DNA of 64,000 nt from Pseudomonadales bacterium (lineage in GTDB: Bacteria; Patescibacteriota; Microgenomatia; UBA1400; PJMF01): the NCBI GenBank assembly GCA_020632255.1, contig JACKFX010000001.1, forward strand, positions 184,216 through 248,215, written 5' to 3'. A program made the translations under genes and the position numbers. The notes beneath the pieces were generated by a model that saw only the letters and a program-made list of their open reading frames with translations, did no database searches and was not told where the DNA came from. Positions 3,043 through 54,355 of the stretch are shown here, piece by piece; the stretch's first letter is position 1, and each line of letters begins with the position of its first letter.

Positions 3043-6000
3043 TTATCTTAGCAAAGCGGCGACTTTCTTTTCTAGTTTTTCTGACCATTTAACGCCGTAT
3101 GGCAAGAGTAATTTTTGCGGTTCACCGCCGTTTGGAATCAAAATTAAGACACTGTTATCTCCTGGGTATTGTTTGAGTAGTGTGCCTAAGGCTTTGAGTG
3201 TGTCCTTGCTTGTTTTTCGTGGAATGAAAATTTCTTTGTGCACGCCGTTGGTTTCGTGTGTTATTTCTCCTGTGCTGGGTTTGCTGACTTTTTCGGCGAT
3301 TAGCTGCATTTCTTCATCTCGATAGTCGACTTTGGCTTTGATGAGCAGAACTGCATCATCTTGGATGGCATCTTTGTATTCATCATAGGTACGAGGAAAA
3401 AAGACTACATCGATGCTGCCGGTTGAATCCTCTAGTCGGCCAAAAGCCATATCTTTGCCTGATTTTCTGGTTTGAACAATGCGAAGGCGAGAAAGTACTC
3501 CACCAAACATGAAAGTATTGTTAGCGTGTAAGTTTGCGTCAAGATCGCCAATATCTTTAGAGATTCGATTAGAGATTGCTCGCAGTTGTGCTGCGAGTGG
3601 ATGATCGGTTAAATACATGCCCAACAACTCTTTTTCAAAGGATAAGAGCTCTTGCTGTGGGTACTCTGGTAGCTGAGGGAAGTCGTCTTTGAGTTCGTTA
3701 GCATTAGTTTCGACATTTGCGAATAAGCTGTCTTGACCATCAATATTAGATTCAAGTTTTGCTGCTGATTTGCGAATGTTCTCCAGGTTTTCAAGCATAC
3801 TGGCGCGTGTGCCAAATGAATCCATTGCCCCAACTTTTATAAGGCACTCGAGGGTTGTTTTGTTGACTTTCCGGCCATCAGTTTCGTTAATAAATTGAGT
3901 CAGCGAAGTAAATTCTCCTATCTCATTTTTTGTTTCGACAATATTTTCAATCGCTTTGCTACCAACATGTTTTATAGCATTGAATCCAAAGCGGATAGCC
4001 AAACCTTCAAGTGAGTTTTTATTCTTTTCAATGATAAACTCAGCATCAGATTTATTAATGTCAGGAGGCAAAATCACGATACCCATTTTTTTACTCCCTT
4101 CGACAGCAGCAGAAATTTTCTCATCGGCGTTCATGGAGTGCGATGCAGCCTCGACACTCATCAAAGCAGTCATGTACTCGACTGGGAAGTTGGCTTTCAG
4201 GTAGGCAGTTTGGTAGGAAATCATCGCATAACTGGCAGCGTGCGCTTTGTTGAACCCGTAGTTTGCGAATGCCATGATGTACTGCCAGACTTTTTCGGCC
4301 ACCTCTTTTGAGTAGCCTCGTTTGCCAGATTCTAATATGAAGCGTTTTTTATTTTCTTCCAGAATTTTGATTTTCTTTTTACCCATGGCGCGGCGGATCA
4401 TGTCTGCTTCACCTAGTGAATAGCCGGCCATGAGTGAGAAAATTTGCATCACTTGCTCTTGGTAGACCATGACTCCGTAGGTTTCCTCAAAGACTTCCTT
4501 GAGTTTTGGGTGCAGATATTCAATCTTATCGGGGTTGTGTTTTCCTTCAATAAATTGTGGAATAAGTTCCATCGGTCCCGGACGGTACAATGCAAGTAAA
4601 GCTGAAACATCTGAAAACTGGCTTGGTTGAAGGCTGCGCGCAACCCGGCGCATGCCTGCCGACTCAAGTTGAAAGACGCCCATGGTTTCGCCACGAGAAA
4701 GCAGTTCGTAGGTTTTTTTATCATCGAGAGCAAGGTTATCAAGATCAAGATCAATATTTTTATATTTTTTAATAAGCTCAAGACAAAACTGTATGGTGGA
4801 AAGATTCCGCAGTCCAAGAAAGTCAAACTTGAGTAGTCCAATGGCATTATCGTCGACGTTACAGTCGAGTGCATACATGTCGTACTGGGTAATCATTTTC
4901 CCTGATTTTGAATCTTGTTGAATTGGCGTGTAGTTGTGCAGTGGTTGGTCAGCAATAATTACGGCGGCAGCATGCATACTGGAGTGACGTACTACACCTT
5001 CAACACGTTTGGCCATATCGATAAGTTTGCGATACTTGGGTAGTTGGTAGTATTCTGAAAGTTCTGGAACTTGCTGGATTGCTTGGTCAAGTGAAGTTTT
5101 TTTACCTGGATCTGCTGGAATAAGTTTGGCGATCATGTCTGGTTCTTCGTAGGGCATTCCCAGCACACGACCAATGTCTCGAATCGAGACGCGAGCTTCC
5201 ATACGACCAAAAGTAATCACATGAGCGACTTGTTCTACTCCATATTTTTCAGAACAGTACTGAATGACTTCATCACGGCGGACATCAGCAAAATCAAGAT
5301 CGATATCAGGAGGAGTTGGACGTTCGGGATTGAGGAAACGCTCGAACGGTAAGTTGTGTTCGAGGGGATTGATGGTGGTAATGCCTAAACAGTATGAAAC
5401 TAGTGACCCGGCGGCGCTGCCTCTTCCTGGGCCCACAGCAATCCCCTGCTCTTTGGCCCAGTTCACAAAATCTTGGGTGATGAGAAAGTACGCAGAGTAG
5501 CCTTTGGTTTGAATGATGTCGATCTCGTATTCAAGCCGTTCAATCATTTCTTTAGTTGGTTTTCCAAACTTTTCATAGAGTTTTTCGTGGGAGTATTTAT
5601 CAAAGAATGAGTCGATGGTTTCACCTTCCGGAATCTCGTAGTTAGGGAAAATCAGCTGACCAGTTTTGATAAAAAGGTTGCATTTTTCGGCTATTTCGAC
5701 GGTGTTGGAGATTGCTTCCGGAAGGTCATGGAAGAGCTCAATCATTTCCTCTTGTGTTTTGAGGTAATAGTCGGGGCTGCTCATTTTCATACGTTTGGTG
5801 TCTGAAATGAGTTTGCGAGTGCCCACACAAATTAATGCATCTTGGGCAGGAGCATCTTCTTTAGTAAGGTAATGAACGTCGGCGGTAGCTACTAGTTTAA
5901 TGTCGAGGTCACGACTTATCTTGATGAGTTTGGTATTCAGGTCTTCGAGGAAGTCGATTTCAGGATGGCGCTGAATTTCCACATAGAAGTCATCGCCAAA

Positions 6001-13969: not shown

Positions 13970-13998
13970 TTGGCAACTGAAAATAAATACAGTATAAT
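13970..13998 (+). promoter_or_regulatory. sigma70-like promoter for tRNA-Asp
   Basis: TTGGCA (13970-13975), 17 bp spacer, TATAAT (13993-13998). The tRNA starts about 25 nt downstream. Confidence 0.5.
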
Positions 13999-14023: not shown

Positions 14024-14099
14024 GGACCCGTGGTGTAGTGGTTAACATGCTTCCCTGTCACGGAAGAGATCGCCGGTTCGACTCCGGTCGGGTTCGCCA
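14024..14099 (+). tRNA. tRNA-Asp (anticodon GTC)
   Basis: Cloverleaf by eye: acceptor GGACCCG/CGGGTTC, anticodon loop CTGTCAC, T-arm GGTTCGACTCC, encoded CCA. Confidence 0.85.
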
Positions 14100-14106
14100 T
14101 AGTATG

Positions 14107-14132
14107 AAAAAAGACCGTTAGGTCTTTTTTTT
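14107..14132 (+). terminator. intrinsic terminator after tRNA-Asp
   Basis: AAGACC-gtta-GGTCTT followed by TTTTTTTT. Confidence 0.7.
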
Positions 14133-14164
14133 ATACTATGCTGATCTCAGTCCTGAATTGAGCC

Positions 14165-14283
14165 CCACGTTCTGCCACATGGTGAGTGACACCTGTCACG
14201 AACCAGGTTAATGCATGCGAGCTTCACAAAGTAGAAGTAAATAGTAGCGAGTCGTAGATCCCGGTCGGGTTCGCAAGTTTTAT
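14165..14283 (+). pseudogene. decayed tRNA-Asp-like duplicate (pseudo-tRNA)
   Basis: Three patches colinear with tRNA-Asp: catggtgagtga (D-arm-like), CCTGTCACG (anticodon arm, exact 9-mer) and CCGGTCGGGTTCGC (T-arm/acceptor, exact 14-mer). About 60 nt of unrelated sequence sits between the last two. Confidence 0.4.
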
Positions 14284-14294
14284 TTTATATTGAT

Positions 14295-14866
14295 ATATAA
14301 CTTGATTTCCCCGCGGCTCTGCCGCGCGGAACCTTGTAGGAAGGTGCGGAAACCCTCGGTTTCTGCGACAATTGAGGGATGAGTCCAGTCAAGACCTTCC
14401 ACAACGCGTACGATACGCACTACCACATCGTCTTTCCTGTTAAGTATCGAAAAAGTTTGCTAACCAATGAAATTCTGCTCGCGATAGTGGAAATCGCGCA
14501 AGAAATCAGTGAACGGTACGACATCGAATTTGAAAAGATTGGTACCGATCAAGATCATATCCATATACTCGCCTCATTTGCCCCAAAATACTCAGGAAGC
14601 GATGTCGTACGAATCTTTAAAAGCATCACTGCCAAGCAACTGTTTGCGCGATTTCCTCACCTTCGAAAAGAATTATGGGGAGGGGAATTTTGGAGTGATG
14701 GATTTTATCTGGCTACGGTTGGCGAGAGGGGGAACTGGAAAGCAGTTGAACGATATGTCGCCAACCAAGGAAAGACGATGAATTTACCCCAACAACTCCA
14801 ATTACTCACCTAACTGACTGGACTCATCCCTCGTGATACCCCGCTGGCTCTGCCGCGGGGAAATTC
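14295..14866 (+). mobile_element. IS200/IS605-family insertion sequence, tnpA only (IS200-like)
   Basis: Single Y1 HUH transposase ORF flanked by imperfect subterminal hairpins with a shared core: left ccccGCGGCtctGCCGCGcgg (14309-14329), right ccccgctGGCtctGCCgcgggg (14839-14860). The right end is fused in-frame into a truncated MFS gene. Boundaries are approximate. Confidence 0.7.
14379..14813 (+). CDS. tnpA: IS200/IS605 family Y1 (HUH) transposase TnpA
   Basis: 144 aa. HxH motif (DHIHIL), catalytic Y region (GFYLATVG), N-terminal YHIVFPVKYRK, typical of IS200 TnpA. Confidence 0.85.
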   Translation: MSPVKTFHNAYDTHYHIVFPVKYRKSLLTNEILLAIVEIAQEISERYDIEFEKIGTDQDHIHILASFAPKYSGSDVVRIFKSITAKQLFARFPHLRKELWGGEFWSDGFYLATVGERGNWKAVERYVANQGKTMNLPQQLQLLT

Positions 14867-15496
14867 ATTAGTTTTGAATAATTCTCTTATTCCCTCTTTT
14901 GTTTGTTTTATGTAGTTTTGCCATGAAAAAACATAACTATCTATTGGTGGTTCTGAAAGCCAAAAGCTAACAATCAGTGCAAGTAACTTCATAATGGCTA
15001 AGGCAATAAAAGGTAAACCAGGATTCATTTTGTACATGAATCCACCTATAATGCTAGCAATAGCCAATGTCAGCATTTTTATTGATGAAATATTACCAAG
15101 AACTTTTTCATATTTAGATTCTTCTTTGTTGGTCAGGAGTGAATCATAGATCAAAGCTTCATTTGTTCCTGAACTTAAAACTCCTCCAATTGTTGCAACC
15201 ATCACTCCTGAAGCAAGGATAAAAAATGAGTTTGCTAAACCCATTAACATATTTCCTAAGAACCCAAACAGAAATGAAAGCATTAGTGTTTTCTTTTTTC
15301 CAAGTAGATCAGCAATTGCTCCTGTAGGTATTTCTCCTACTACTGAAGTAATGATCATTACAGATTCTAGTAATCCTATGCCTGCATAATTTGTATATCT
15401 TAAATAAAAAAGTACCCAGATTGCAGCCCAAAACCAGCTATAGTCAAAAGCTGTAATTAAGTACATCAAAGTAATATTTTGTTTTTGTTTTTTCAC
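14810..15496 (-). pseudogene. MFS transporter, N-terminal half only (about 6 TM), truncated by IS insertion
   Basis: The 228-aa ORF has MFS-like TM helices. Its last ~20 codons (…EFPRGRASGVSRGMSPVS*) are translated from the IS right-end hairpin and the tnpA stop region. No C-terminal half is present downstream. Confidence 0.6.
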
Positions 15497-15732
15497 AATA
15501 GTAATTTTACCATGTAATTAGGTGATAAGATTTATACTAGTTCCATTAAAAGCTAGGTATATAACTAGGAAAAACTTGGTGTATACCCTATCTCATTAAT
15601 ACTAACCCAGTTAGGCATCACGTTTAAAATTTTCTCAAGTGAGTTGTATAGTGGTTCTACACAATTCCGTTCTAGTTCGCAAAACATATATTACATTGAT
15701 AAATCAATCTATATCTTATCATTTCATTTTTT

Positions 15733-15764
15733 GTAAAAAAACCCAGTCGCGTAGGACTGGGTTT
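15733..15764 (-). terminator. intrinsic terminator of the 15789-16319 gene, possibly bidirectional
   Basis: A-run, then ACCCAGTC-gcgtagg-ACTGGGT, then TTT. On the minus strand the hairpin is followed by TTTTTTT. Confidence 0.6.
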
Positions 15765-15788
15765 GATAGTAAATTCCGATAAAACTTG

Positions 15789-16319
15789 TTACTGGTTGTC
15801 ACCCTGTACAATCCATCGTGAGATGAAGTTAGCACAAATGTGACTAAATACAGCGGAAACTAATCCACCGTACCAGCCCAATGTGAGCCAAATAAAAGAA
15901 TACAGCATGTGAAAGACGCTTCGTTTGTCATGAATGGCTAAAAACCAGACCATTTGGACTAACGCAATCACTAAGATGAACAACCCTTTTTCTGCTGTCT
16001 GAATTTCCATATTAACGACTGCTTTGATTGTGATAATCGCAGCTAACCGAATAATATGTTCTTCAAACACAGCCATCTTCAACAAGTGAAGATGGTCAGA
16101 TTCACCTACTTGCATTCCCTTTTTGGTGGTCACTACAGCAATTAAGGCTGGAATAATGAATCCAGCGATAAGTGCTAAACCAGTAACAACAGGAGGAGTT
16201 TTGACCCAGATGTCTAAAACATTCTCCCCCAGATAGTAATTATATACTGCCGCAATGGCAGAAATAATTACTGCGTATACAAGAAATCTATTCGACTTCC
16301 AAGCAAGAAACTTTAACAT
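15789..16319 (-). CDS. hypothetical small integral membrane protein
   Basis: 176 aa, 4-5 hydrophobic helices, no recognisable motif. Confidence 0.4.
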   Translation of the reverse strand: MLKFLAWKSNRFLVYAVIISAIAAVYNYYLGENVLDIWVKTPPVVTGLALIAGFIIPALIAVVTTKKGMQVGESDHLHLLKMAVFEEHIIRLAAIITIKAVVNMEIQTAEKGLFILVIALVQMVWFLAIHDKRSVFHMLYSFIWLTLGWYGGLVSAVFSHICANFISRWIVQGDNQ

Positions 16320-16674
16320 GATCTTTTGCTCCTCATGTTTTTATTCGAAATTTTAATTTGCTTGATCTGAACCACTGTTTTATTAGTAATTCAAATCATT
16401 TATATTATGGGATATAATTGTTGTTTTGTCAATCAGGCCTACTCGATGAAAACTAGGCAAAATGCCAGGCGCGAGGCCTGGCATTTCTTAATTTCACCAC
16501 TTCAGTGAGTTGAATCTGGCACGGAAGTGCCAGAAAAACAGAAAACCACCCGCTATGCGGGTGGAAATAAGAGTGCTTTAGCACGAAGAAATCTTTAGAT
16601 AAGAGAAACCACCTTTCTATTTGATAGGATTAGTTTTGGTACAAACAATCCGTAGAAAGGCGGTTTAATTTAGT

Positions 16675-17124
16675 ATGGCAGAAAGTCTAGCACACACCAA
16701 GTGGATGTGTAAATATCACATAGTATTTACACCAAAGTATCGGAGAAAAGCAATATACTGCAGGTTAAGAAAAGATCTACAAGAAATAATAGTAGATCTA
16801 TGCAAATGGAAAGGGATAAAAATAGTGGAGGGACACATGATGCCAGATCATGTGCATGTACTCTTATCAATACCACCAAAATATAGTGTGTCTAGCATAA
16901 TGGGGTATTTGAAAGGCAAAAGTGCCATGATGATATTTGATCGGCATACAAACTTAAAATATAAGTACGGAAGAAGGAACTTTTGGGCAACAGGATATTA
17001 TGTATCAACAGTGGGATTGAATGAAAAAACAATCAGAAAATACATCCGTGAACAAGAGAAAGCAGATTTGATAACAGACAAGTTAACAACAAAAGAATAT
17101 GAAGACCCTTTTAAGGGTAGCTAA
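16675..17124 (+). CDS. tnpA: IS200/IS605 family Y1 transposase TnpA, second divergent copy
   Basis: 149 aa. YHIVFTPKYRR, HVHVLLSIPPKYS (HuH) and GYYVSTVG (catalytic Tyr) motifs. Only moderately similar to the first tnpA, so a different IS. Confidence 0.85.
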   Translation: MAESLAHTKWMCKYHIVFTPKYRRKAIYCRLRKDLQEIIVDLCKWKGIKIVEGHMMPDHVHVLLSIPPKYSVSSIMGYLKGKSAMMIFDRHTNLKYKYGRRNFWATGYYVSTVGLNEKTIRKYIREQEKADLITDKLTTKEYEDPFKGS

Positions 17125-17367
17125 GAAATCAGTCCACAGAGATAGCATCATTTAGGTGCTGGAAGTAACAAGCCCTTATAGGGCTCAGTCAAGCCACGTC
17201 CTATGGGCGTGGTCCTGACTTCCTTTGCAGAAAACTCTGCACAGCTATGAACGAGGGTTAGCCGCGGAGCGGATAAGCCTGAGCTGTGCGGAGAGAATGG
17301 CATATCACTCGGAGAGTGATATGCTGTTAGCATGAAAACTTGTTTTCATGAGTTGCGGAGCCGAGGA

Positions 17368-17412
17368 AACTCCGTAGTCAGCGTAGCGTACTGCGGAGAG
17401 GACGTCATTAAC
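17368..17412. repeat. ~45-bp repeat 'R', copy 1 (ggaaacTCCGTAGtCAGCGTAGCGTACTGCGGaGAGGACGTCaTTAA)
   Basis: Near-identical copy at 48961-49005. Both copies abut the 3' end of a minus-strand small gene. Confidence 0.7.
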
Positions 17413-17423
17413 AAATTCTGTCA

Positions 17424-17825
17424 TTAATGCTGGTCGAAGTGAACTTGATACACAGCATAGCAAGCAGCTCTTTCTTTTGGTTGTTCGGGATTAAAGCCCT
17501 TGAAAGTGATGTGTACATCATATACAGCATGGTTCCATCTAGCAGTCCCGATTACAAAAGATTGCCCGATAGTTCCAGGAAGGTGCAGGTTGCAGTTTTT
17601 TGTAAACAGCGGCGTAAGCAGTTCGCGCAGCTGATAGGCCATCACTGCATTAACCAGAAAAATCGGTTGGCAGTAGCGACGGCAGAACACAACTTCCTTG
17701 GTAATATATTTCTTCCAAAATGGGAAAGGCCGAGAGGTGCTTGTAAACTCAACCGGAACCGCTGAGTAAATCAGATCGGGGCCAATTTCTAGAAATACTT
17801 GATTTTCACCATTTTTCAATTCCAT
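17424..17825 (-). CDS. hypothetical protein (133 aa)
   Basis: Good expression signals upstream: AAGGAGG 9 nt before the ATG and an extended -10 (TGTATAAT). No recognisable domain. Confidence 0.45.
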   Translation of the reverse strand: MELKNGENQVFLEIGPDLIYSAVPVEFTSTSRPFPFWKKYITKEVVFCRRYCQPIFLVNAVMAYQLRELLTPLFTKNCNLHLPGTIGQSFVIGTARWNHAVYDVHITFKGFNPEQPKERAACYAVYQVHFDQH

Positions 17826-17981
17826 ATGCGAGATCCTCCTTGGACTGTATTTGGAATATTTGAATTTCGACAGCTGTTAAAGATACTTGAATTATACACT
17901 ATAGGATTATCTGTGGCAAGCCAAGACCTGAAGTCAGCTTTTTTTTTCTGCAATTCCATTTATAATAAGTCTGTTCCAAGT

Positions 17982-18054
17982 GCCGGGATAGCTCAGCTGG
18001 TAGAGCGGCGGTATCGTAAACCGTAGGTCAGGGGTTCGAATCCCCTTCTCGGCT
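17982..18054 (+). tRNA. tRNA-Thr (anticodon CGT); CCA not encoded
   Basis: Acceptor GCCGGGA/TCTCGGC, D-arm GCTCAGCTGGTAGAGC, anticodon loop ATCGTAA, T-arm GGGGTTCGAATCCCC. TATAAT at 17961-17966 upstream. Confidence 0.8.
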
Positions 18055-18122
18055 CACTAATTATTAGCACCCGAGGTAAGCTCTACTTGGCTACTCAGTC
18101 AGCTTTGCTATAATGGAGTCAT

Positions 18123-47686: not shown

Positions 47687-48697
47687 ATGAGACGTTTGGA
47701 GCAAATATCACAGCAGTCGTCGTCTGAGCGTTTTCAATTGGGAAACGCAGAAATTTTTATTGGACCTTCATTTACTTGTGGAACTTCGCACATAAATATT
47801 GAAGAATCTGGACTTTCTACTTTATTAGATAAAAACAGTTTTTCACTCTCACCAGTGATGCATAAGTTTATCCAGAATGAAGGTGAACCACTTGTAAACT
47901 ATCTGGGAGCTATTATATTGTTTTTTACTAGGATTGAAAGAAAATATGTTCAAAAATCAGAAACTTGTGGTAGGTGTGATGTATTTGGCGTACCAAGAAT
48001 TTGTATTTGCAGTAAAGATACCTTTTATAGGATTCGTGGAAATCCACCTCCACCAGAATGGGCGGGAATATATGTCTGGTTTGATGGAACAGTAGTATGT
48101 CAAGCCGATTACTTAGTCGCCGCACTGTCAGGCACTGAGTTTGTTGGAAAACAAGTAGATGGGAGATCATTTATTCGTGAAATAGGACATGAACTACGAC
48201 ATTCGTATCAAGACATACTTTTCTATTATGAAAATGAAAGTTTATGCAAACATGCACAGAAATATGATTTATGGTTCTTTGAAGGTTTAGTTGAAGCAAT
48301 GGATACCACAAGTGTAGGTATGTCATTTAGTACTTTTTCGGAGCGATTTAGACCATTTTTACTAAAACATCCAAATTTTTCGTTTATGGATATTAGATCT
48401 TCGTTTTGGAATTACGATACCTCTCCGGTAATTGATAACCTGATGTATCAGTATTCTCGATTTTTTGTACAGTATTTGCTTCCTTTTTTTGATAGAGCTC
48501 TGCTTTCAACGTTGCGGGGTCATCATATTTCAGCGGAGTTCTCAAGCATATATATCATGATTGAACAATTCTCTGATGCTTATTCTGATGGTTATCGGGG
48601 GACATTCTTGGAGTTCATATCCGAAAAAATTGGGTTAACTGTTGAATTACTTCAGCAAATAGAGGCAGATTTTCAGAAGAGTATACTTGCCTGCTAA
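47687..48697 (+). CDS. hypothetical protein with HEXXH zinc-metallopeptidase-like motif
   Basis: 336 aa, GHELRHSYQD (HEXXH) in the middle of the protein. Otherwise unrecognised. Confidence 0.4.
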   Translation: MRRLEQISQQSSSERFQLGNAEIFIGPSFTCGTSHINIEESGLSTLLDKNSFSLSPVMHKFIQNEGEPLVNYLGAIILFFTRIERKYVQKSETCGRCDVFGVPRICICSKDTFYRIRGNPPPPEWAGIYVWFDGTVVCQADYLVAALSGTEFVGKQVDGRSFIREIGHELRHSYQDILFYYENESLCKHAQKYDLWFFEGLVEAMDTTSVGMSFSTFSERFRPFLLKHPNFSFMDIRSSFWNYDTSPVIDNLMYQYSRFFVQYLLPFFDRALLSTLRGHHISAEFSSIYIMIEQFSDAYSDGYRGTFLEFISEKIGLTVELLQQIEADFQKSILAC

Positions 48698-48840
48698 CAG
48701 TGATTCATAGCATTTCATAAAAAATATGGTTATCTGGTGTATGCTCATAGATTGTGAATGTGGTCTATCATAAAAAGCTCTTCAGGCAGGAAGAGCTTTT
48801 TTAAATGTATTATGTATTTTGATTAATTGGATACAACCAC

Positions 48841-48935
48841 ATATGCGTCCATCAACTCAACAGTTGTGCTGGTAGTTTTGCCATCCATTGCGGTCTCGAA
48901 GCTTGTCCACTCGGTTCCATTCCAGCCTGCAATGA
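48841..48935 (-). pseudogene. orphan duplicate of the 3' (C-terminal) ~95 nt of the 264-aa gene at 54511-55305
   Basis: Near-identical, same orientation as 54519-54613 (ccatcaactcaacagttg(t/c)gctggtagttttgccatcca(t/c)tgcggtctcgaagcttgtccactcggttccattccagcc), then diverges. No ORF context. Confidence 0.65.
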
Positions 48936-48960
48936 AGATTGTTCTTCACGAATGGTGGCT

Positions 48961-49005
48961 GCCAAGGAAACACCGTAGCTAGCGTAGCGTACTGCGGGGA
49001 GGACG
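48961..49005. repeat. ~45-bp repeat 'R', copy 2
   Basis: ggaaacaCCGTAGcTAGCGTAGCGTACTGCGGgGAGGACGTCgTTAA, matching 17368-17412 at the right end of IS200-like element 2. Confidence 0.7.
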
Positions 49006-49052
49006 TCGTTAAGTACTTGAAAATCTTCTTTAATTAAATGAAATAAGGATAT

Positions 49053-49343
49053 TTATAAGGATAATTGCTTTTCTATATCAAGAATTTCATTTTTTGAGAA
49101 AAGACTAAGTAGCATAGAAATATATGAGTTTCTTTCTTTCAAATCAAGAATTTCTTCCCAAGGATTAAATTTGAGATGAAGTTCTAGTGGATGTGGTTCG
49201 TTTATTACTCTTTTAGTAGTGTCAATTTTTATGGCTGTAACTTTGGCTTGTTCCTCAGTACCGAGTTTGGGAACGTCATGTTTATTGATAACTAAAACTT
49301 GATCGGCTAACTTTGCAATTGGGTATATTTCAGCTTGGGTCAT
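49053..49343 (-). CDS. small (~96 aa) partner protein of the giant repeat protein; candidate immunity/antidote-type protein (inference)
   Basis: Start set at the ATG at 49343 (MTQAEIYPIAKLAD...), not the TTG used by the track. AGGAGA Shine-Dalgarno overlaps the giant gene's TAG stop. 60-70% identical paralog at 54062-54355. Confidence 0.6.
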   Translation of the reverse strand: MTQAEIYPIAKLADQVLVINKHDVPKLGTEEQAKVTAIKIDTTKRVINEPHPLELHLKFNPWEEILDLKERNSYISMLLSLFSKNEILDIEKQLSL

Positions 49344-49350
49344 TATTCTC

Positions 49351-52300
49351 CTAGTACACAACTAATTCTACTGTATGATCTGGGTTTTCTCTATTATATC
49401 TATCAACCGCTGTTCTCATTTCAGAAATTTCATACTCAGCTATACCATTACCTAGTGATAAGTGAATTGAGGTAATGTCAGTCATATCTAAGCTTCCATG
49501 AATTTGAATTTCTGAATACGAACTATCGAGTGCAGGTACCAGTGATGGAACTGAGAAGTCAGTCTTGGTTGCCTCCCAAAATCTGATCACATTGTATTTT
49601 TTAAGTGCAGACAAGTAATGAGGTTTTTGAACTGGAGAAGGCGGTCGGTCGTTATTTAAACTATCACCAAAAAGGAAAGTAGACTTCTTTTTGGCCTCAT
49701 TAGCAATTCTACAGCCGGCACGACCATATTGTACGACTGTATTTTCGGGAGGATTTTTTCCCACAGAGTTTAAAACGCCATTATTATCTGGGGTAAAGTA
49801 GCCATAAATAGTTCTTGATTGAGGTTTGTAACTTGTTTCATCTGGAAAACCAAAAGTTCTTAGTTCAAAAGCAGCTCTGTAAGAATTAGAAAGACACCCT
49901 CCTGAAGTTTGGGTTTCAAACTGGCTCTTCCATCTTTTGTCTCTTGGAAGAATATGATTCAGGAGAACGCTTACATCTGTGGCTCTAAAGAGTTGTGATT
50001 GGTCCATAGAAACTTCAGTATAGCGTTGAATCTCATCTAAGAATTCTATCAGTGATAGCCCTTCTTTTCTAAGAATTGTTCTTATGTCTCCATGCTCTTC
50101 GATAGATTCTAAGAATCTTTGCTCGTAAATGAGGATATTCTTAAGCAGAGTGATCTCAAGATCAGGATTTGCTTCGACGTTCATTTTTACACTATCCCAA
50201 TCAGCCATATATTCGATGGTGACATCGGATAATTTATTAATATCGAGTTTGTTTACTTTCTCATCATCGGGGAATTTACGTTTTATTTCAATAAGTTGAA
50301 AGAGAGCCTTTTCTTTAACTTTTTCAAAGGCTTCGGCTTGTTCTGCATTTCTTTCTCTTCTGAGAGAAAACATTCTTTTTCGCTTTTCAATTCTTTCTTT
50401 CGAAAAATACGTTATATCAAAAGTCGTACCAAGATATTGTGCAGCCGAAAGGAACATATGAATTTTTTGATGTTCTTGTGCATATGTGATTAGTTCTTTG
50501 GTTTTTACATCCCTGTCATATCCGGAAAGGCTGTCATAATCTATTCCCAAGTAGGAAGCAACAATCTTATTTTCAACCACGCTAAAGGCAAAAGTCATCA
50601 TTTGTCGAAGATCTGTTAGATCACTTTCGTTTAAGTCTGTGGGCAAATCTTCAATTAGTTTAATGTTGTTAACACGTTCTTCGATTGATTTTTGTCTTTC
50701 AGTAACTTGCTCATTTGTAAAGTACGACAGATTAATATCATCATGAGTGTACTTCATACTTGCAAGCAACTTATCGATGATGGATCTTTTTCCAGCAAGC
50801 TCTATTACTTTGCTAATAGTTGAATTAAGGTAGTGACCAGAAACATCCGAGTATTTGATTCCAATCAGGCCGCAAATTTTTTTTATCTGCTGATTTTCCT
50901 TAACAACACTATAAATAGTTTCAATCAGTACTTCAGTATCCGATGAATTTAAGTTTTCAGGAAATTGGGTGCTTAGTTGTTCTATTTTTCTTTTTCTTTC
51001 TTCACCAGCACTACTCGTGAATTCAGTGATATCAATTTCCTCTTTGATATATTTGATAGCAGAAACAAATTTTTGCATCGCATTGTTATTCTGACTTGAA
51101 TCAAGCATTATATGAACTTTATTGTGTAAATCTCCATCAAGAGATGCATATTCGATGTTTAAGTAGTGTGAGAGTAGTTTGACTTCGACAGAAGCAAACG
51201 ATTCATTTGAGATAATTTGCTTTAAGCAAACAAAACTGTAGTCGTCAAATGTATTCGGGATACTTTCGTTGATTTGAATTTGTTCAGCCATTTCAACGAT
51301 TATTTGATTTCTTCTCTCAATTTCTGCAATTGAGAAAGAATCAAGACCATCATCGTTTAAGACGAATTTTGCAGCTGCGATAAACTTGTTAAGTTGTAAC
51401 CTCTTTTTTGCAATAACAAGCAGGTGCTCAACCATATCACTCTCATAGTAATCATCAATTTCAAAGTAATCTACACCGACAAAAGCGCTGATCAAGACAA
51501 TCTGACTTTTAGAGAGAGCATTTTTGGTTTTTTTCTTCAATTCTTCAAATAATTCTGGGTCAAGATCTTCTGGGAAGTCGTTAACGGATTCCAGCATCTT
51601 TTGTTGACGTTTCTCAATATTGCTTTCGGTAAATTGGGAACAATCAAGATCAGGATTAAGAGAACTAAAAGCGGAAAGGAATTTATTGGTAAGAAAGTGC
51701 TCTTGTGAGTATTTTAGAAGTTTACCTGCTTTTTTGATGGCGCTAACATCACTGAACTCATCAGGACCTATATTCATATATGCTAGTATGACCCTGATAT
51801 CATCCTCAGAAATGTTTTCAAGAACAAGAGGGTATAAGATGTGGTATGTTAATTCATCCAGTTTCTGAGGAAAATCCTCATTAAATACAATTTTATCAGC
51901 TTTTTCTTGGACAATCCTTTTTGCTGCTTCTATGCTTTCTATTGTAAATTCTGATAAAGAAATATGATCAATTGTCACCTCAACAGCTGACAAAAATTTA
52001 TTAACCTGTGCTTTTTCTTTGACTAATCGAAGTGTATTCTGCACTTTATCACTTATATAATAGCCTTCGACATCTTCCATACTAAGACCTAATGCATCTA
52101 AAATTTGCATAAGTTCAGCTGCAGTTATTTCAAACTGGATTTCTTCAAGAAGTCTAGTTTCATAGTAAGCGTCAATAGTAGTTGGATATTTATTAGCTGT
52201 TGCCTCCATCTCCTTTTGTTTGTTATCGATATATTCTTGGGTGAATCGCGTGAGATCGAGGTCTTTTTCGAGGTACACTACGGCTGAAAGAAGTTTATCT

Positions 52301-53952
52301 AGTAGTGAGTGTTCATTTGCATACTCAATAAGACTAGTGATTTTTTGATGGGTAAAATCGCCCTCTAGACTGTCGTAGTCAGCGCCAATATAGGCAGCGA
52401 TAACTTTTGAGTCCTCTTTCTCAATTTTCCAAGAGAGCTCACTAACTAAGTTATTAAGATACAATTGGCTCACTGATTTTGGATACTCACTACGCAATGT
52501 AATTGCTATTACGGATTCTTCAATATATCTACGTCTTTTATCAATATCTTCTTTTGTATAGTATGTCAAGTCAAGTCCATCAAAGAGAATGCTAATTGCT
52601 GAGAGAAATTTGTGTGTCACTTTTTTTTCTTGGACTTGATTGAAAATATTTGCAATTTCTCTGGAATAAGTTCGATCTTCAATACTTACGTATGGAATAT
52701 CAAGAAAGGTGCATAATGAGTTGATTATGTCATCATCAAGAAATGCATCCTTAATCTCTTCAAGAAGAATGTTAAAACTAGTTTGATCTAGTGTAGGATA
52801 AAAAACATCTTGAGATGCTTCTAAAGCAGCAGCTCTCTTTTTTAAAGATTCTTTTGTAAAAATCTTAAAGTCACCTGGGATATATTCTTTTCGGTAACTT
52901 GCGAAATAGATTACAGCTGACAGAAGCTTATGCATCACTGCATGATCTTGTGCATATCTAATTATGTTTTTTGCTTCAGTAGAGTAGTGTGACGCTTCCA
53001 CCTCTTCGTAGTCTGCTCCAATAAATGCAACGATTCTTTTGGCTTCATATTCAGAATGTATATTTCTTGAAATGACTCTCGTTAGTTTTGTTATACTTAA
53101 AACATCAAGTGATTCTGGGTAATCTTCTTCTTTGGCAGCAAGCTTTTCATTCAGTTTGAAAATTTCGTGGTAAAATTCTAAATCGACCTCATCTTTTTTG
53201 ATGTATTGCACTGCTGATAAAAACCTATCAAAAAGAGAATTGCCTTCTGCAAATTCAATCAGCGATGCAAATTCAATCTGCGATGAGATGCTTGTCGTGT
53301 GTGTTTCAGAAACAATCAACTCAGGATCTGCCCCGATATATTGAGCAATTACCTTTAATTCTGACTTTGTAAGTTTGTGTTGTAATTGTTCTGTCAGTGT
53401 ACGAATGTCATGTCCACTTAATGATTTTGGAAATTCATCAATGTAGGGAATTTTATCAGCTTCTTCTACTAGTTCCTCTTTTTCTCTCCTAGTTCTTGCT
53501 ATATCAAGCGCCATCAGTCTTGCGGGGGAGTCCGCATATAAACCAGGTGTTGAAATAGAACTATATGGTTCGCGTCTAGTCAATATATCTCTTATATCGT
53601 AGGAATCAAAAGGAGCATATAAATCGGATTTTTTCTCTTCTGATGTAGGGAATTTAATATCTGGGAAATCTTCTCCAATTCTAATTTTAAGGTCATCAGT
53701 TTCAAACCTAATACCTGGGAAATCTTCTCTAATTTCAAGGCCCTCGGTAGTAGCGGGTGTCATTATATCTACATCACCTAAAGGCTCTGAAATAGTTTCT
53801 TCTGGGTGAGTTTTTTTCATTGCGCGTCGAAGCATTCTAGCGAGTATACTTTTGCCAAATGAATACGGTGTATCGTCATCACCTATTTTGTAGTCAGGTT
53901 TATCTGGGTGTGACTCAATTAGCTTCTTGAATTCGTGAAATTCTGTTGTCAT
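49351..53952 (-). CDS. giant (1533 aa) repeat protein: unique N-terminal region, ~10 tandem ~105-aa novel repeats, distinct ~250-aa C-terminal domain
   Basis: Repeats share (I/V)xx(Y/F)(I/L)G(A/I)DY(D/E), then ~30 aa later (K/R)(F/L)LSA(V/I)xY(I/L/F), then D(L/I)(T/D)x(F/Y)(T/S)xE. No signal peptide, no known motif seen. TATAAT 7 nt upstream of the ATG suggests a leaderless transcript. Confidence 0.7.
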   Translation of the reverse strand: MTTEFHEFKKLIESHPDKPDYKIGDDDTPYSFGKSILARMLRRAMKKTHPEETISEPLGDVDIMTPATTEGLEIREDFPGIRFETDDLKIRIGEDFPDIKFPTSEEKKSDLYAPFDSYDIRDILTRREPYSSISTPGLYADSPARLMALDIARTRREKEELVEEADKIPYIDEFPKSLSGHDIRTLTEQLQHKLTKSELKVIAQYIGADPELIVSETHTTSISSQIEFASLIEFAEGNSLFDRFLSAVQYIKKDEVDLEFYHEIFKLNEKLAAKEEDYPESLDVLSITKLTRVISRNIHSEYEAKRIVAFIGADYEEVEASHYSTEAKNIIRYAQDHAVMHKLLSAVIYFASYRKEYIPGDFKIFTKESLKKRAAALEASQDVFYPTLDQTSFNILLEEIKDAFLDDDIINSLCTFLDIPYVSIEDRTYSREIANIFNQVQEKKVTHKFLSAISILFDGLDLTYYTKEDIDKRRRYIEESVIAITLRSEYPKSVSQLYLNNLVSELSWKIEKEDSKVIAAYIGADYDSLEGDFTHQKITSLIEYANEHSLLDKLLSAVVYLEKDLDLTRFTQEYIDNKQKEMEATANKYPTTIDAYYETRLLEEIQFEITAAELMQILDALGLSMEDVEGYYISDKVQNTLRLVKEKAQVNKFLSAVEVTIDHISLSEFTIESIEAAKRIVQEKADKIVFNEDFPQKLDELTYHILYPLVLENISEDDIRVILAYMNIGPDEFSDVSAIKKAGKLLKYSQEHFLTNKFLSAFSSLNPDLDCSQFTESNIEKRQQKMLESVNDFPEDLDPELFEELKKKTKNALSKSQIVLISAFVGVDYFEIDDYYESDMVEHLLVIAKKRLQLNKFIAAAKFVLNDDGLDSFSIAEIERRNQIIVEMAEQIQINESIPNTFDDYSFVCLKQIISNESFASVEVKLLSHYLNIEYASLDGDLHNKVHIMLDSSQNNNAMQKFVSAIKYIKEEIDITEFTSSAGEERKRKIEQLSTQFPENLNSSDTEVLIETIYSVVKENQQIKKICGLIGIKYSDVSGHYLNSTISKVIELAGKRSIIDKLLASMKYTHDDINLSYFTNEQVTERQKSIEERVNNIKLIEDLPTDLNESDLTDLRQMMTFAFSVVENKIVASYLGIDYDSLSGYDRDVKTKELITYAQEHQKIHMFLSAAQYLGTTFDITYFSKERIEKRKRMFSLRRERNAEQAEAFEKVKEKALFQLIEIKRKFPDDEKVNKLDINKLSDVTIEYMADWDSVKMNVEANPDLEITLLKNILIYEQRFLESIEEHGDIRTILRKEGLSLIEFLDEIQRYTEVSMDQSQLFRATDVSVLLNHILPRDKRWKSQFETQTSGGCLSNSYRAAFELRTFGFPDETSYKPQSRTIYGYFTPDNNGVLNSVGKNPPENTVVQYGRAGCRIANEAKKKSTFLFGDSLNNDRPPSPVQKPHYLSALKKYNVIRFWEATKTDFSVPSLVPALDSSYSEIQIHGSLDMTDITSIHLSLGNGIAEYEISEMRTAVDRYNRENPDHTVELVVY

Positions 53953-53959
53953 AGAAAAA

Positions 53960-53965
53960 ATTATA
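53960..53965 (-). promoter_or_regulatory. -10 box (TATAAT) 7 nt upstream of the giant gene's ATG; possible leaderless transcript
   Basis: Minus strand reads taggTATAATtttttctATGACA. No Shine-Dalgarno is present. Confidence 0.35.
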
Positions 53966-54061
53966 CCTATTTTTTATTGGCTATGTAATAACAAAAAAAG
54001 GAATTTTTTATAGTAAAATATTTTGACCAAGTACTGAATTAAAACAAGCTTAACTGTAACT

Positions 54062-54355
54062 TTATTTTTTCAGTTGTGATTCGATATTACTCATTGTTTC
54101 TTTGGAGAAAAGTCTTAAAAGCATAGACATATAGGCATTTCTCTCATTTTGATCAACAATTTCTTCCCAAGGATTAAATTTGAGATGAAGTTCTAGTGGA
54201 TGTGGTTCGTTTATTACTCTTTTAGTAGTGTCAATTTTTATAGCCTTAACAGTAGCTTGTTTTCTAGGATTTCCAAGTTTAGTTACGTCACTTTTATTAA
54301 TTACTAACAGTAAGTCGGCAAGTTTAGCTATTGGGTAAATTTCGGGTTTTTTCAT
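54062..54355 (-). CDS. small partner-protein paralog (97 aa) of 49053-49343
   Basis: MKKPEIYPIAKLADLLLVINKSDV...KIDTTKRVINEPHPLELHLKFNPWEEI is colinear with the partner protein. Confidence 0.6.
   Translation of the reverse strand: MKKPEIYPIAKLADLLLVINKSDVTKLGNPRKQATVKAIKIDTTKRVINEPHPLELHLKFNPWEEIVDQNERNAYMSMLLRLFSKETMSNIESQLKK

Follow-up and report, generated by a model that had tools for sequence, protein, structure and literature searches.

Overview of the locus

We analysed the interval between the genes for tRNA-Asp and tRNA-Thr in a 64-kb stretch of contig JACKFX010000001.1 (hereafter the window, to which all unlabelled positions refer), which comes from a metagenome-assembled genome (MAG) listed at NCBI as "Pseudomonadales bacterium" (locus tag H6773_01065). 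The features that the initial annotation of this DNA had listed were all recovered where it had placed them: tRNA-Asp, a tRNA-Asp-like copy, two IS200-type insertion sequences (IS1 and IS2), half of a major facilitator superfamily (MFS) transporter gene, the open reading frames (ORFs) ORF176 and ORF133, and tRNA-Thr. The two tRNA genes are the only ones found in the window by ARAGORN and Rfam. In our judgement the interval, part of a Patescibacteria genome, is probably a mosaic: mobile-DNA processes of several ordinary kinds would have built it at an integration hot spot formed by tRNA-Asp.

Outside the interval, the window carries housekeeping genes (DnaE, GatCAB, HtpX, LemA, IleS, FtsA/FtsZ and the mur/dcw cluster). 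The closest homologues of LemA and of the MFS fragment come from Woesebacteria, Pacebacteria, Beckwithbacteria and the "Patescibacteria group". Because of these affinities and the gene content, we take the source organism to be a bacterium of the Candidate Phyla Radiation (CPR; Patescibacteria) despite the name of the MAG.

The comparison involved one close relative, a single strain from sample SRR26387399 with approximately 93-95 % nucleotide identity in the flanks and two informative contigs (L005 and L025), and one distant relative with approximately 74 % identity (Logan contig L026, SRR18162975). Collinearity of the left flank (LemA-HtpX-GatCAB-DnaE) extends to relatives at the ~74 % level and that of the right flank to the ~95 % relative, in agreement with the earlier description of an accessory, decaying region surrounded by syntenic housekeeping DNA. 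L005 aligns collinearly with window positions 20623-18038, 18061-17408 and 16491-15666, and L025 follows the left flank to the end of tRNA-Asp (14097) before entering unrelated DNA. This comparison of presence and absence, which the initial annotation had proposed, showed that in the relative IS2 is missing, tRNA-Asp has no pseudo-tRNA and the DNA that follows this gene is different.

The junctions within 14068-16520 are real and no artefact of assembly, because three Logan contigs, obtained independently from other SRA runs, match positions 14068-15394, 14270-15171 and 14299-16520 at 100 % identity. The arrangement as a binning or assembly chimera is hardly credible in view of these matches, even if the MAG has a doubtful taxonomic label and IS2 is present in several copies, across which the assembly could be wrong. 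ORF176 and ORF133 are adjacent at the same TTAA in the relative, which shows that the flanks of IS2 and of the neighbouring repeat SE belong together.

Three copies of the tRNA-Asp 3′ end

The functional tRNA-Asp(GTC) lies at 14024-14099 on the plus strand (ARAGORN; Rfam, 63 bits), preceded by a promoter-like TTGGCA-17-TATAAT at 13970-13998. Its 3′ 14-mer, CCGGTCGGGTTCGC at 14084-14097, is repeated with 14 of 14 bases at 14261-14274 and, in a decayed form, with 11 of 14 at 15667-15680. The second copy is part of a displaced tRNA-Asp 3′ end (14257-14276, plus strand, direct-repeat family D5) that reads GATCCCGGTCGGGTTCGCAA from T-loop G57 onwards and has no CCA. The third copy, missed in the initial annotation, belongs to a relic at 15639-15683 (plus strand, repeat families D5 and D14) composed of a D-arm-like GTTGTATAGTGGTT and the 3′ end CCGTTCTAGTTCGCA, with the anticodon arm missing. 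With the D-arm-like 14-mer (12 of 14 bases identical, p ~0.015) ahead of the third tail copy, this relic is what remains of an entire tRNA-Asp after the loss of the anticodon arm. At the position of the relic, L005 ends in an intact ACTCCGGTCGGGTTCGC and the flank that follows is identical; because an intact tRNA-Asp tail stands exactly there, the relic would mark the original junction between tRNA-Asp and ORF176.

The second copy had been described as a decayed tRNA-Asp, but the feature is best read as a displaced, attR-like tRNA 3′ end that forms the right repeat of a small insert. Neither ARAGORN nor Rfam (E<=1) called a tRNA in 14100-14300, and no anticodon stem or T stem could be drawn. 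The same lack of calls, together with a fold z of -0.6, speaks against a functional intron-containing tRNA at 14141-14276, which had been named as the finding that would overturn the description.

The live tRNA-Asp of the window ends in ...GTTCGCCA with an encoded CCA, whereas the displaced second copy ends in GTTCGCAAG and the relative's tRNA-Asp in GTTCGCAAAA. In L025, tRNA-Asp ends in ...GTTCGCAAAAAA and lacks CCA, as does tRNA-Thr of the window. Because of these differences, the final bases of the live tRNA-Asp, its encoded CCA and all of the insert downstream probably derive from incoming DNA. The tail repeats appear to bound a variable block of approximately 14100-15683 whose only anchor is tRNA-Asp. 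As expected of a tRNA island, the block is bracketed by direct repeats of the 3′ part of the tRNA, and the upstream copy completes a functional tRNA-Asp. The ORFs between the repeats are the IS1 transposase and the MFS fragment, and no tyrosine or serine recombinase was found next to the att site among the scanned ORFs of the window. Site-specific integration into a tRNA 3′ end and tandem accretion with decay leave such a pattern (PMC5704250).

Because L025 and L026 carry different DNA after the same tRNA-Asp, in the latter case with a serine recombinase, the 3′ side of tRNA-Asp is probably a recurrent integration site. In L025, tRNA-Asp is followed by a LysM-type ORF, tRNA-Gly(CCC) and a secreted protein. 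In L026, a 583-aa large serine recombinase (3482-5233; Resolvase, Recombinase and Zn_ribbon_recom domains) lies 3′ of tRNA-Asp and adjoins a 902-aa DUF87/TraG-like ATPase.

Several other observations concern the same site in relatives. The reading frame of the L026 recombinase crosses the whole tRNA gene (5145-5220) in antisense. On the minus strand of L025, positions 700-1000 read as a strong promoter-like TTGACA-17-TATAAT, a GC-rich leader of approximately 200 nt and the secreted-protein gene, downstream of tRNA-Gly(CCC). LemA-anchored contigs from five metagenome assemblies of related organisms (L024, L030, L031, L032 and L033) all break inside tRNA-Asp, between the D-arm and the T-loop, and so do not cover the DNA downstream of it. 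The breaks probably arise because co-occurring strains have the tRNA sequence in common but differ in their downstream DNA.

Related mini-inserts in tRNA-Asp and tRNA-Thr

Between the first and the second tail copy lies a mini-insert body of 157 nt (14100-14256, plus strand). It comprises a bidirectional terminator-like hairpin in its left part (A-run, stem and T-run at 14098-14140; inverted repeat I10, 15 nt at 93 %), approximately 70 nt without notable features and, at 14214-14256, the 43-nt module CATGCGAGCTTCACAAAGTAGAAGTAAATAGTAGCGAGTCGTA, whose motif is single-copy in the window. L005 has an insert of 144 nt directly after tRNA-Thr, between perfect 24-nt repeats that begin at T-loop G57 and end 6 nt beyond the gene. 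The corresponding site in tRNA-Thr of the window is unoccupied (18038-18061, plus strand), and the L005 alignment blocks overlap by exactly these positions. Occupancy thus differs at both genes: the tRNA-Thr site carries an insert in L005 but none in the window, and tRNA-Asp has one in the window, with no insert of this type behind it in L025.

Window positions 14214-14262 are 85.7 % identical over 49 nt to positions 2632-2584 of L005, a piece located just before the displaced tRNA-Thr tail. In both inserts the module abuts the displaced tail at the same T-loop position, and a hairpin analogous to that at 14098-14140 occupies the same place in L005. The order of parts is the same from end to end, with only the module conserved and the remainder unalignable. 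Since the two inserts differ from each other more than the genomes around them do, they appear to be separate members of one family, neither of them recently copied from the other.

No promoter, significant fold or encoded function was evident in the mini-inserts, and their RNA folds were not unusual (z = -0.6 in the window and -1.4 in L005). A blastn search in distant mode of the window insert against phages and plasmids gave no match. Exact scans with the module motif GCGAGCTTCNNAAAGTAGAAG returned four matches in GTDB (185,579 species genomes), 12 in JGI metagenomes and one in IMG/VR, all of them chance matches in coding sequence and none beside a tRNA. The flank after the second tail copy resembles the native flank after the third relic only weakly (p = 0.06).

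The tRNA-Asp-like pieces could in principle have arisen by tandem duplication of tRNA-Asp followed by decay, with no site-specific integration. A weak colinear remnant of the tRNA-Asp 5′ half, TGGTG-AGTG-ACA-CCTGTCACG (D-arm and anticodon loop), precedes the second copy in the mini-insert (p ~0.01 against shuffles), and the D-arm-like 14-mer of the third relic points in the same direction. We nevertheless consider this origin very improbable. Duplication cannot create a novel 157 nt, an encoded CCA or a terminator, and it leaves unexplained both the same module abutting the tRNA-Thr tail in the relative and the clean single-copy tRNA-Thr site in the window. Moreover, no tRNA-Thr 5′ half was detectable in the L005 insert (p = 0.69).

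We read the mini-inserts as candidate att-flanked units without an integrase, similar to cis-mobilizable elements (CIMEs), which are defined as att-flanked remnants lacking an integrase (Pavlovic 2004 as reviewed in PMC5704250); the recombinase acting in trans is hypothetical. Excision would join tRNA-Asp directly to ...GCAAGTTTTATTTTAT (predicted attB), and the predicted circle junction (attP) would read ...GCGAGTCGTA-GAYYCCGGTCGGGTTCGCCA-TAGTATG... The locus shares with tRNA islands and CIMEs the direct repeats of the tRNA 3′ end, several in a row with decayed content between them, as well as a tRNA rebuilt by element sequence, the lack of a recombinase in cis, strain-variable occupancy and a clean empty site. 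It differs in that the att-bounded units are extremely small (144-157 nt) and that related units sit in different tRNA species. In addition, one relic keeps part of the tRNA 5′ half, and both excision and the cognate recombinase are putative here.

The mini-inserts might instead be no decayed islands at all but a distinct miniature, non-autonomous family that homes to the conserved T-loop (GGTTC|GA) of tRNA genes in general, each insert bringing a replacement tRNA tail and a terminator and switching between tRNA species. Two members with their junction at the same T-loop position in tRNA-Asp and tRNA-Thr, their nearly equal length and identical part order would fit such a family. The conservation of the 43-nt module alone (86 %) suggests constraint on the architecture and not random deletion, and occupancy differs at both tRNA sites between strains that are ~95 % identical. 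Only two copies are on record, however, the exact-motif scans yielded nothing beyond chance coding matches, and neither insert has an evident promoter, significant fold or encoded function. The perfect 24-nt repeat, with its 6 nt beyond the tRNA, looks like an ordinary attP/attB core. On balance, a separate family of this kind seems somewhat unlikely.

IS1 and the truncated transporter gene

IS1 is a complete element of the IS200 group of approximately 573 bp (~14298-14870, plus strand; Pfam and NCBIfam), whose ends were set by alignment with its relatives. It has hairpins at the left end (14310-14331) and at the right end (14840-14861), the latter with the tail GAAATTCATTA, and a 29-nt direct repeat is shared between the two ends. 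Its transposase TnpA1 (14379-14813, plus strand) is full-length and scores 120.5 bits with Y1_Tnp (Pfam) and 126.9 bits with NF033573 transpos_IS200 (NCBIfam). The curated cut-offs of these profiles are 23 and 55 bits, respectively. The transposase of IS2 (TnpA2) also exceeds both, which confirms that the locus holds two genuine IS200-like elements. Both proteins carry the HIHIL/HVHVL motif and the C-terminal tyrosine (RYV/KYI). Because they share only 31 % identity, IS1 and IS2 are different elements.

At the amino acid level, TnpA1 is 64 % identical to a copy on a Legionella longbeachae plasmid and 57 % identical to a copy on a Nitrosomonas plasmid, and all three elements have the hairpins ATWCCCCGYGG...CCRCGGGG and the tail GTTYATTA in common. 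The exact TnpA1 is on record in this locus alone; no copy in a different context attests to the mobility of IS1.

We identified four nested perfect long-range helices within IS1, all on the plus strand. The outermost, 18 bp long (14374-14391/14815-14832), covers the Shine-Dalgarno sequence, the ATG and the next 11 nt of tnpA, and it encloses helices of 13 bp (14426-14438/14768-14780), 13 bp (14489-14501/14644-14656) and 11 bp (14516-14526/14600-14610). In 200 shuffles such helices occurred 0.03 times on average and at most once, compared with four in IS1. The RNA fold of IS1 has a z of -7.3, and the two relatives from Legionella and Nitrosomonas reach -1.1 and +0.3. A 26-nt insert after the stop codon, absent from both relatives, contains the 3′ arm of the outermost helix. 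The helices could plausibly serve translational self-repression, bring the ends together in the single-stranded transposition intermediate or result from quasipalindrome correction.

The MFS ORF (14810-15496, minus strand) matches positions 2-179 of the 347 in the MFS_1 profile, and its last ~18 codons run into the right end of IS1, as the initial annotation had noticed. The MFS sequence proper is a pseudogene (14871-15496, minus strand) with the N-terminal ~209 of ~366 codons. Its alignment with relatives of 345-370 aa ends at approximately residue 210, where IS1 ends, so the fragment falls short of the two six-helix halves and ~350-400 aa of a functional transporter. Apart from the identical MAG entry, the closest homologue is 60 % identical. 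The block has a GC content of 0.30-0.37 against a window mean of 0.42.

The missing C-terminal half, which the initial annotation had proposed to look for, was not found by tblastn in the 64-kb window. To the left of IS1, 21 nt are followed by the second tRNA tail copy. Because this is not the remainder of the MFS gene, we infer that a deletion or rearrangement beside IS1 removed at least ~470 bp with the 3′ half of the gene.

IS2 and the SE repeat

IS2, the second complete IS200-group element, measures 729 bp (16492-17220, plus strand) and is inserted 3′ of TTAA (16488-16491). Its full-length transposase TnpA2 (16675-17124, plus strand) scores 135.3 bits with Y1_Tnp (Pfam) and 151 bits with the NCBIfam IS200 profile, and it is 78 % identical to the IS200 tnpA product of Ligilactobacillus. 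Both ends carry hairpins, two at the left end (16513-16530; 16547-16565) and two at the right end (17171-17185; 17193-17214), and another hairpin (16606-16666) lies over the likely ribosome-binding site. We also considered TnpA2 as a tyrosine transposase associated with repetitive extragenic palindromes (REP), but it reached only 35.2 bits on NF047646 (cut-off 80).

Identical IS2 copies with different flanks are present in contigs L001 and L002. They match the window from 16484 and 16492, respectively, where the contigs start, and diverge from it after 17220 and 17223. Because these copies match only to 17220/17223 and then enter other flanks, IS2 appears to span 16492-17220 and to be multi-copy in this organism. 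It is thus seen in three flanks (window, L001 and L002) and is absent from L005, as expected of a mobile element. At its left junction, IS2 follows TTAA in the window and TTTA in L001; insertion of the left end 3′ of a fixed tetranucleotide is described for IS200/IS605 elements (PMC5027513).

The initial annotation had rightly recognised a second IS200-like element here but had included in it an unrelated hairpin-rich repeat of 187 nt, SE (17221-17407, plus strand), which is followed by TTAA (17408-17411) and is absent from L001, L002 and L005. L005 lacks 16492-17407 and one TTAA copy (17408-17411), with a single TTAA at the junction. The empty site thus has one TTAA, and in the window SE and a second TTAA occupy the right side of IS2. 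SE consists of consecutive hairpins that are nearly perfect (fold z = -5.5 on the plus and -6.1 on the minus strand). Searches with Rfam at E<=1 over 13-19 kb returned the two tRNAs and two sub-threshold chance matches, and nothing for SE.

The right 77 nt of SE recur at 48931-49007 on the plus strand (nhmmer, E = 5.6e-9; blastn, 82 % over 82 nt). This partial copy also ends in ...GGACGTCG and TTAA (GGACGTC(A/G)+TTAA) and lies just 3′ of a minus-strand gene. The hairpin CATGAAAAC/GTTTTCATG of SE is replaced there by TGAAGA/TCTTCA with the pairing kept. Both copies are bracketed by TTAA, with spans of 187 and 182 nt, and only the right 77 nt are alike; the left halves are dissimilar and no terminal inverted repeats were detected (p = 0.25). 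In blastn searches (distant mode) against plasmids, SE had no match, and IS2 together with SE matched over tnpA alone. A shared minus-strand peptide, NDVLxAVRYAxYGVS, can be read from SE, but we rejected a coding role as the adjacent hairpin is kept without amino-acid conservation. SE is better viewed as a putative non-coding, unclassified intergenic repeat that shares one TTAA with IS2.

As all 916 bp are missing from the relative at a single TTAA and are bracketed by TTAA on both sides, IS2 and SE might form one transposon, either a variant with a long right end or a product of read-through that mobilised flanking DNA. The two other copies of IS2, identical to 17220 (17223 in L002) and then followed by unrelated DNA, make this distinctly unlikely, and so do the partial SE copy at 48.9 kb, where the right 77 nt stand without IS2, and the dissimilarity of the SE hairpins to the end hairpins of IS2.

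IS1 and IS2 resemble other members of the IS200 group (IS200/IS605; IS200, IS608) in their small size (573-729 bp), the single HUH/Y1 TnpA of ~145 aa and the subterminal imperfect palindromes, which stand at both ends in the same orientation without terminal inverted repeats. IS2 shares with them, in addition, a left end at a short AT-rich target (TTAA or TTTA) and a stem-loop over the ribosome-binding region. The top strands of both elements lie on the G-rich plus strand, which is the expected lagging-strand template orientation (PMC5027513, PMC3201880). IS1 differs from its Legionella and Nitrosomonas relatives by the extra 26 nt after the stop codon and the four nested helices. SE is similar to REP sequences, bacterial interspersed mosaic elements or miniature inverted-repeat transposable elements in being hairpin-rich, intergenic, located 3′ of a gene and partly recurrent, with one hairpin kept through compensating changes. 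It differs from them in lacking terminal inverted repeats and in recurring over no more than 77 of its 187 nt. The adjacent TnpA2 differs from the transposases of REP systems in scoring as IS200.

Conserved backbone of the interval

ORF176 (15789-16319, minus strand) encodes a predicted all-helical membrane protein of 176 aa whose family is unassigned. It is followed by its own terminator, a stem-loop with a T-run at 15735-15761, as previously noted. The protein had no match in Pfam, NCBIfam, PHROGs, PADLOC or PDB, and its single-sequence AF2 model (six helices, pLDDT 58) was too poor for a fold search. Read by eye, the EExxxR, FxxxH and HxxxN motifs bear a possible resemblance to those of CPBP proteases. 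The gene is 98 % identical in L005 at the nucleotide level.

ORF133 (17424-17825, minus strand, 133 aa) was described as an orphan gene with a strong Shine-Dalgarno sequence and an extended -10 element. We recovered the GGAGG Shine-Dalgarno and a promoter-like TTGCCA-17-TATAAT at 17919-17891, but the TG of an extended -10 was not flagged by the scan. No match was found in Pfam, NCBIfam, PHROGs or PADLOC. Among 5.8 billion sequences and 1.8 billion representatives, the only homologue beyond its own MAG entry was an 84 % orthologue in the relative. The structure prediction was poor and the fold matches were insignificant. A bidirectional terminator hairpin at 16459-16487, separated from ORF133 in the window, directly follows the gene in the relative. 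tRNA-Thr(CGT) lies at 17982-18055 on the plus strand (ARAGORN, Rfam).

ORF176, ORF133 and tRNA-Thr occur in the same order in L005 with 87-98 % identity. Because of this conservation they appear to be lineage-specific backbone and not cargo. The extent of the island thus had to be revised: it does not span the whole tRNA-to-tRNA interval, and its variable part is limited to ~14100-15683.

Elsewhere in the window, the partial SE copy lies at the edge of a second accessory patch of low GC content (0.36-0.39) at 47687-54355. This patch contains a 336-aa ORF without a Pfam match and a gene (49351-53952, minus strand) whose 1533-aa product has an EAD7 effector-associated domain; small paralogous genes with 74 % identity (49053-49361 and 54062-54355, both minus strand) bracket this gene. 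The plus strand is G-rich across all 64 kb, yet nearly all genes are located on the minus strand; if the GC skew marks the leading strand, most genes of the window are oriented head-on to replication.

A probable integration hot spot at tRNA-Asp

From the repeats, element ends, presence/absence polymorphisms and truncation described above, we infer an order of events in which ordinary processes built the mosaic. Site-specific integrations into the T-loop/3′ end of tRNA-Asp, carried out by a trans-acting recombinase, would have been stacked by tandem accretion and left three direct copies of the tail, with the live tRNA-Asp now ending in element-borne sequence that supplies CCA and a terminator. 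Behind it would follow the 157-nt integrase-less mini-insert, an older MFS block and the decayed relic at the ORF176 junction. IS1, moving as single-stranded DNA, would have come to abut the MFS gene at approximately codon 209, and the adjacent deletion or rearrangement would have taken the 3′ half. IS2, an unrelated second IS200-group element, would have inserted 3′ of TTAA between the stop codon of ORF133 and its terminator, next to SE. The published accretion/CIME model fits this layout (PMC5704250).

Several points weigh against this reading. There is no integrase of any kind in the 64-kb window, which leaves the recombinase hypothetical, and mini-inserts in different tRNAs are hard to reconcile with one sequence-specific integrase. 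The third relic and, weakly, the mini-insert keep remnants of the tRNA 5′ half, which pure displacement of the 3′ end does not predict. IS1 is known from a single context, which makes both its mobility and its part in the deletion indirect conclusions; the IS2/SE junction is seen in the window itself only, and the comparison uses one close relative.

Because a CIME model with a recombinase in trans poorly explains two different tRNA species, we also considered a bolder proposal, which we regard as unlikely: that the 144-157-nt inserts are an undescribed CPR class of miniature integrative elements targeting the universally conserved T-loop of tRNA genes, and that the panhandle of nested helices in IS1 silences the tnpA mRNA and/or pre-synapses the element ends. 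Such miniature elements may carry a replacement tRNA 3′ end and a bidirectional terminator and may be recognised through the 43-nt module with its GCGAG repeats. A recombinase supplied in trans may then let them hop between tRNA species (Asp and Thr).

Returning to the mosaic, the locus is a further example of a well-known kind, in which tandem att scars, insertions of IS200 elements and decaying genes are combined at a tRNA integration hot spot. Further work might be worthwhile only on the IS1 panhandle and on the occurrence of mini-inserts in two tRNA species. The locus documents textbook genome plasticity at a tRNA gene in a lineage of small-genome Patescibacteria whose mobile elements are little studied. 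For annotation, the MFS gene is to be marked as a pseudogene and ORF176 and ORF133 as lineage-specific backbone. If the tiny att-flanked inserts are truly mobile and switch between tRNAs, they would be the smallest integrative elements known and a handle on an unidentified recombinase. With its nested helices, IS1 may provide a natural case of an IS200 transposase gene shaped by the structure of RNA or single-stranded DNA.

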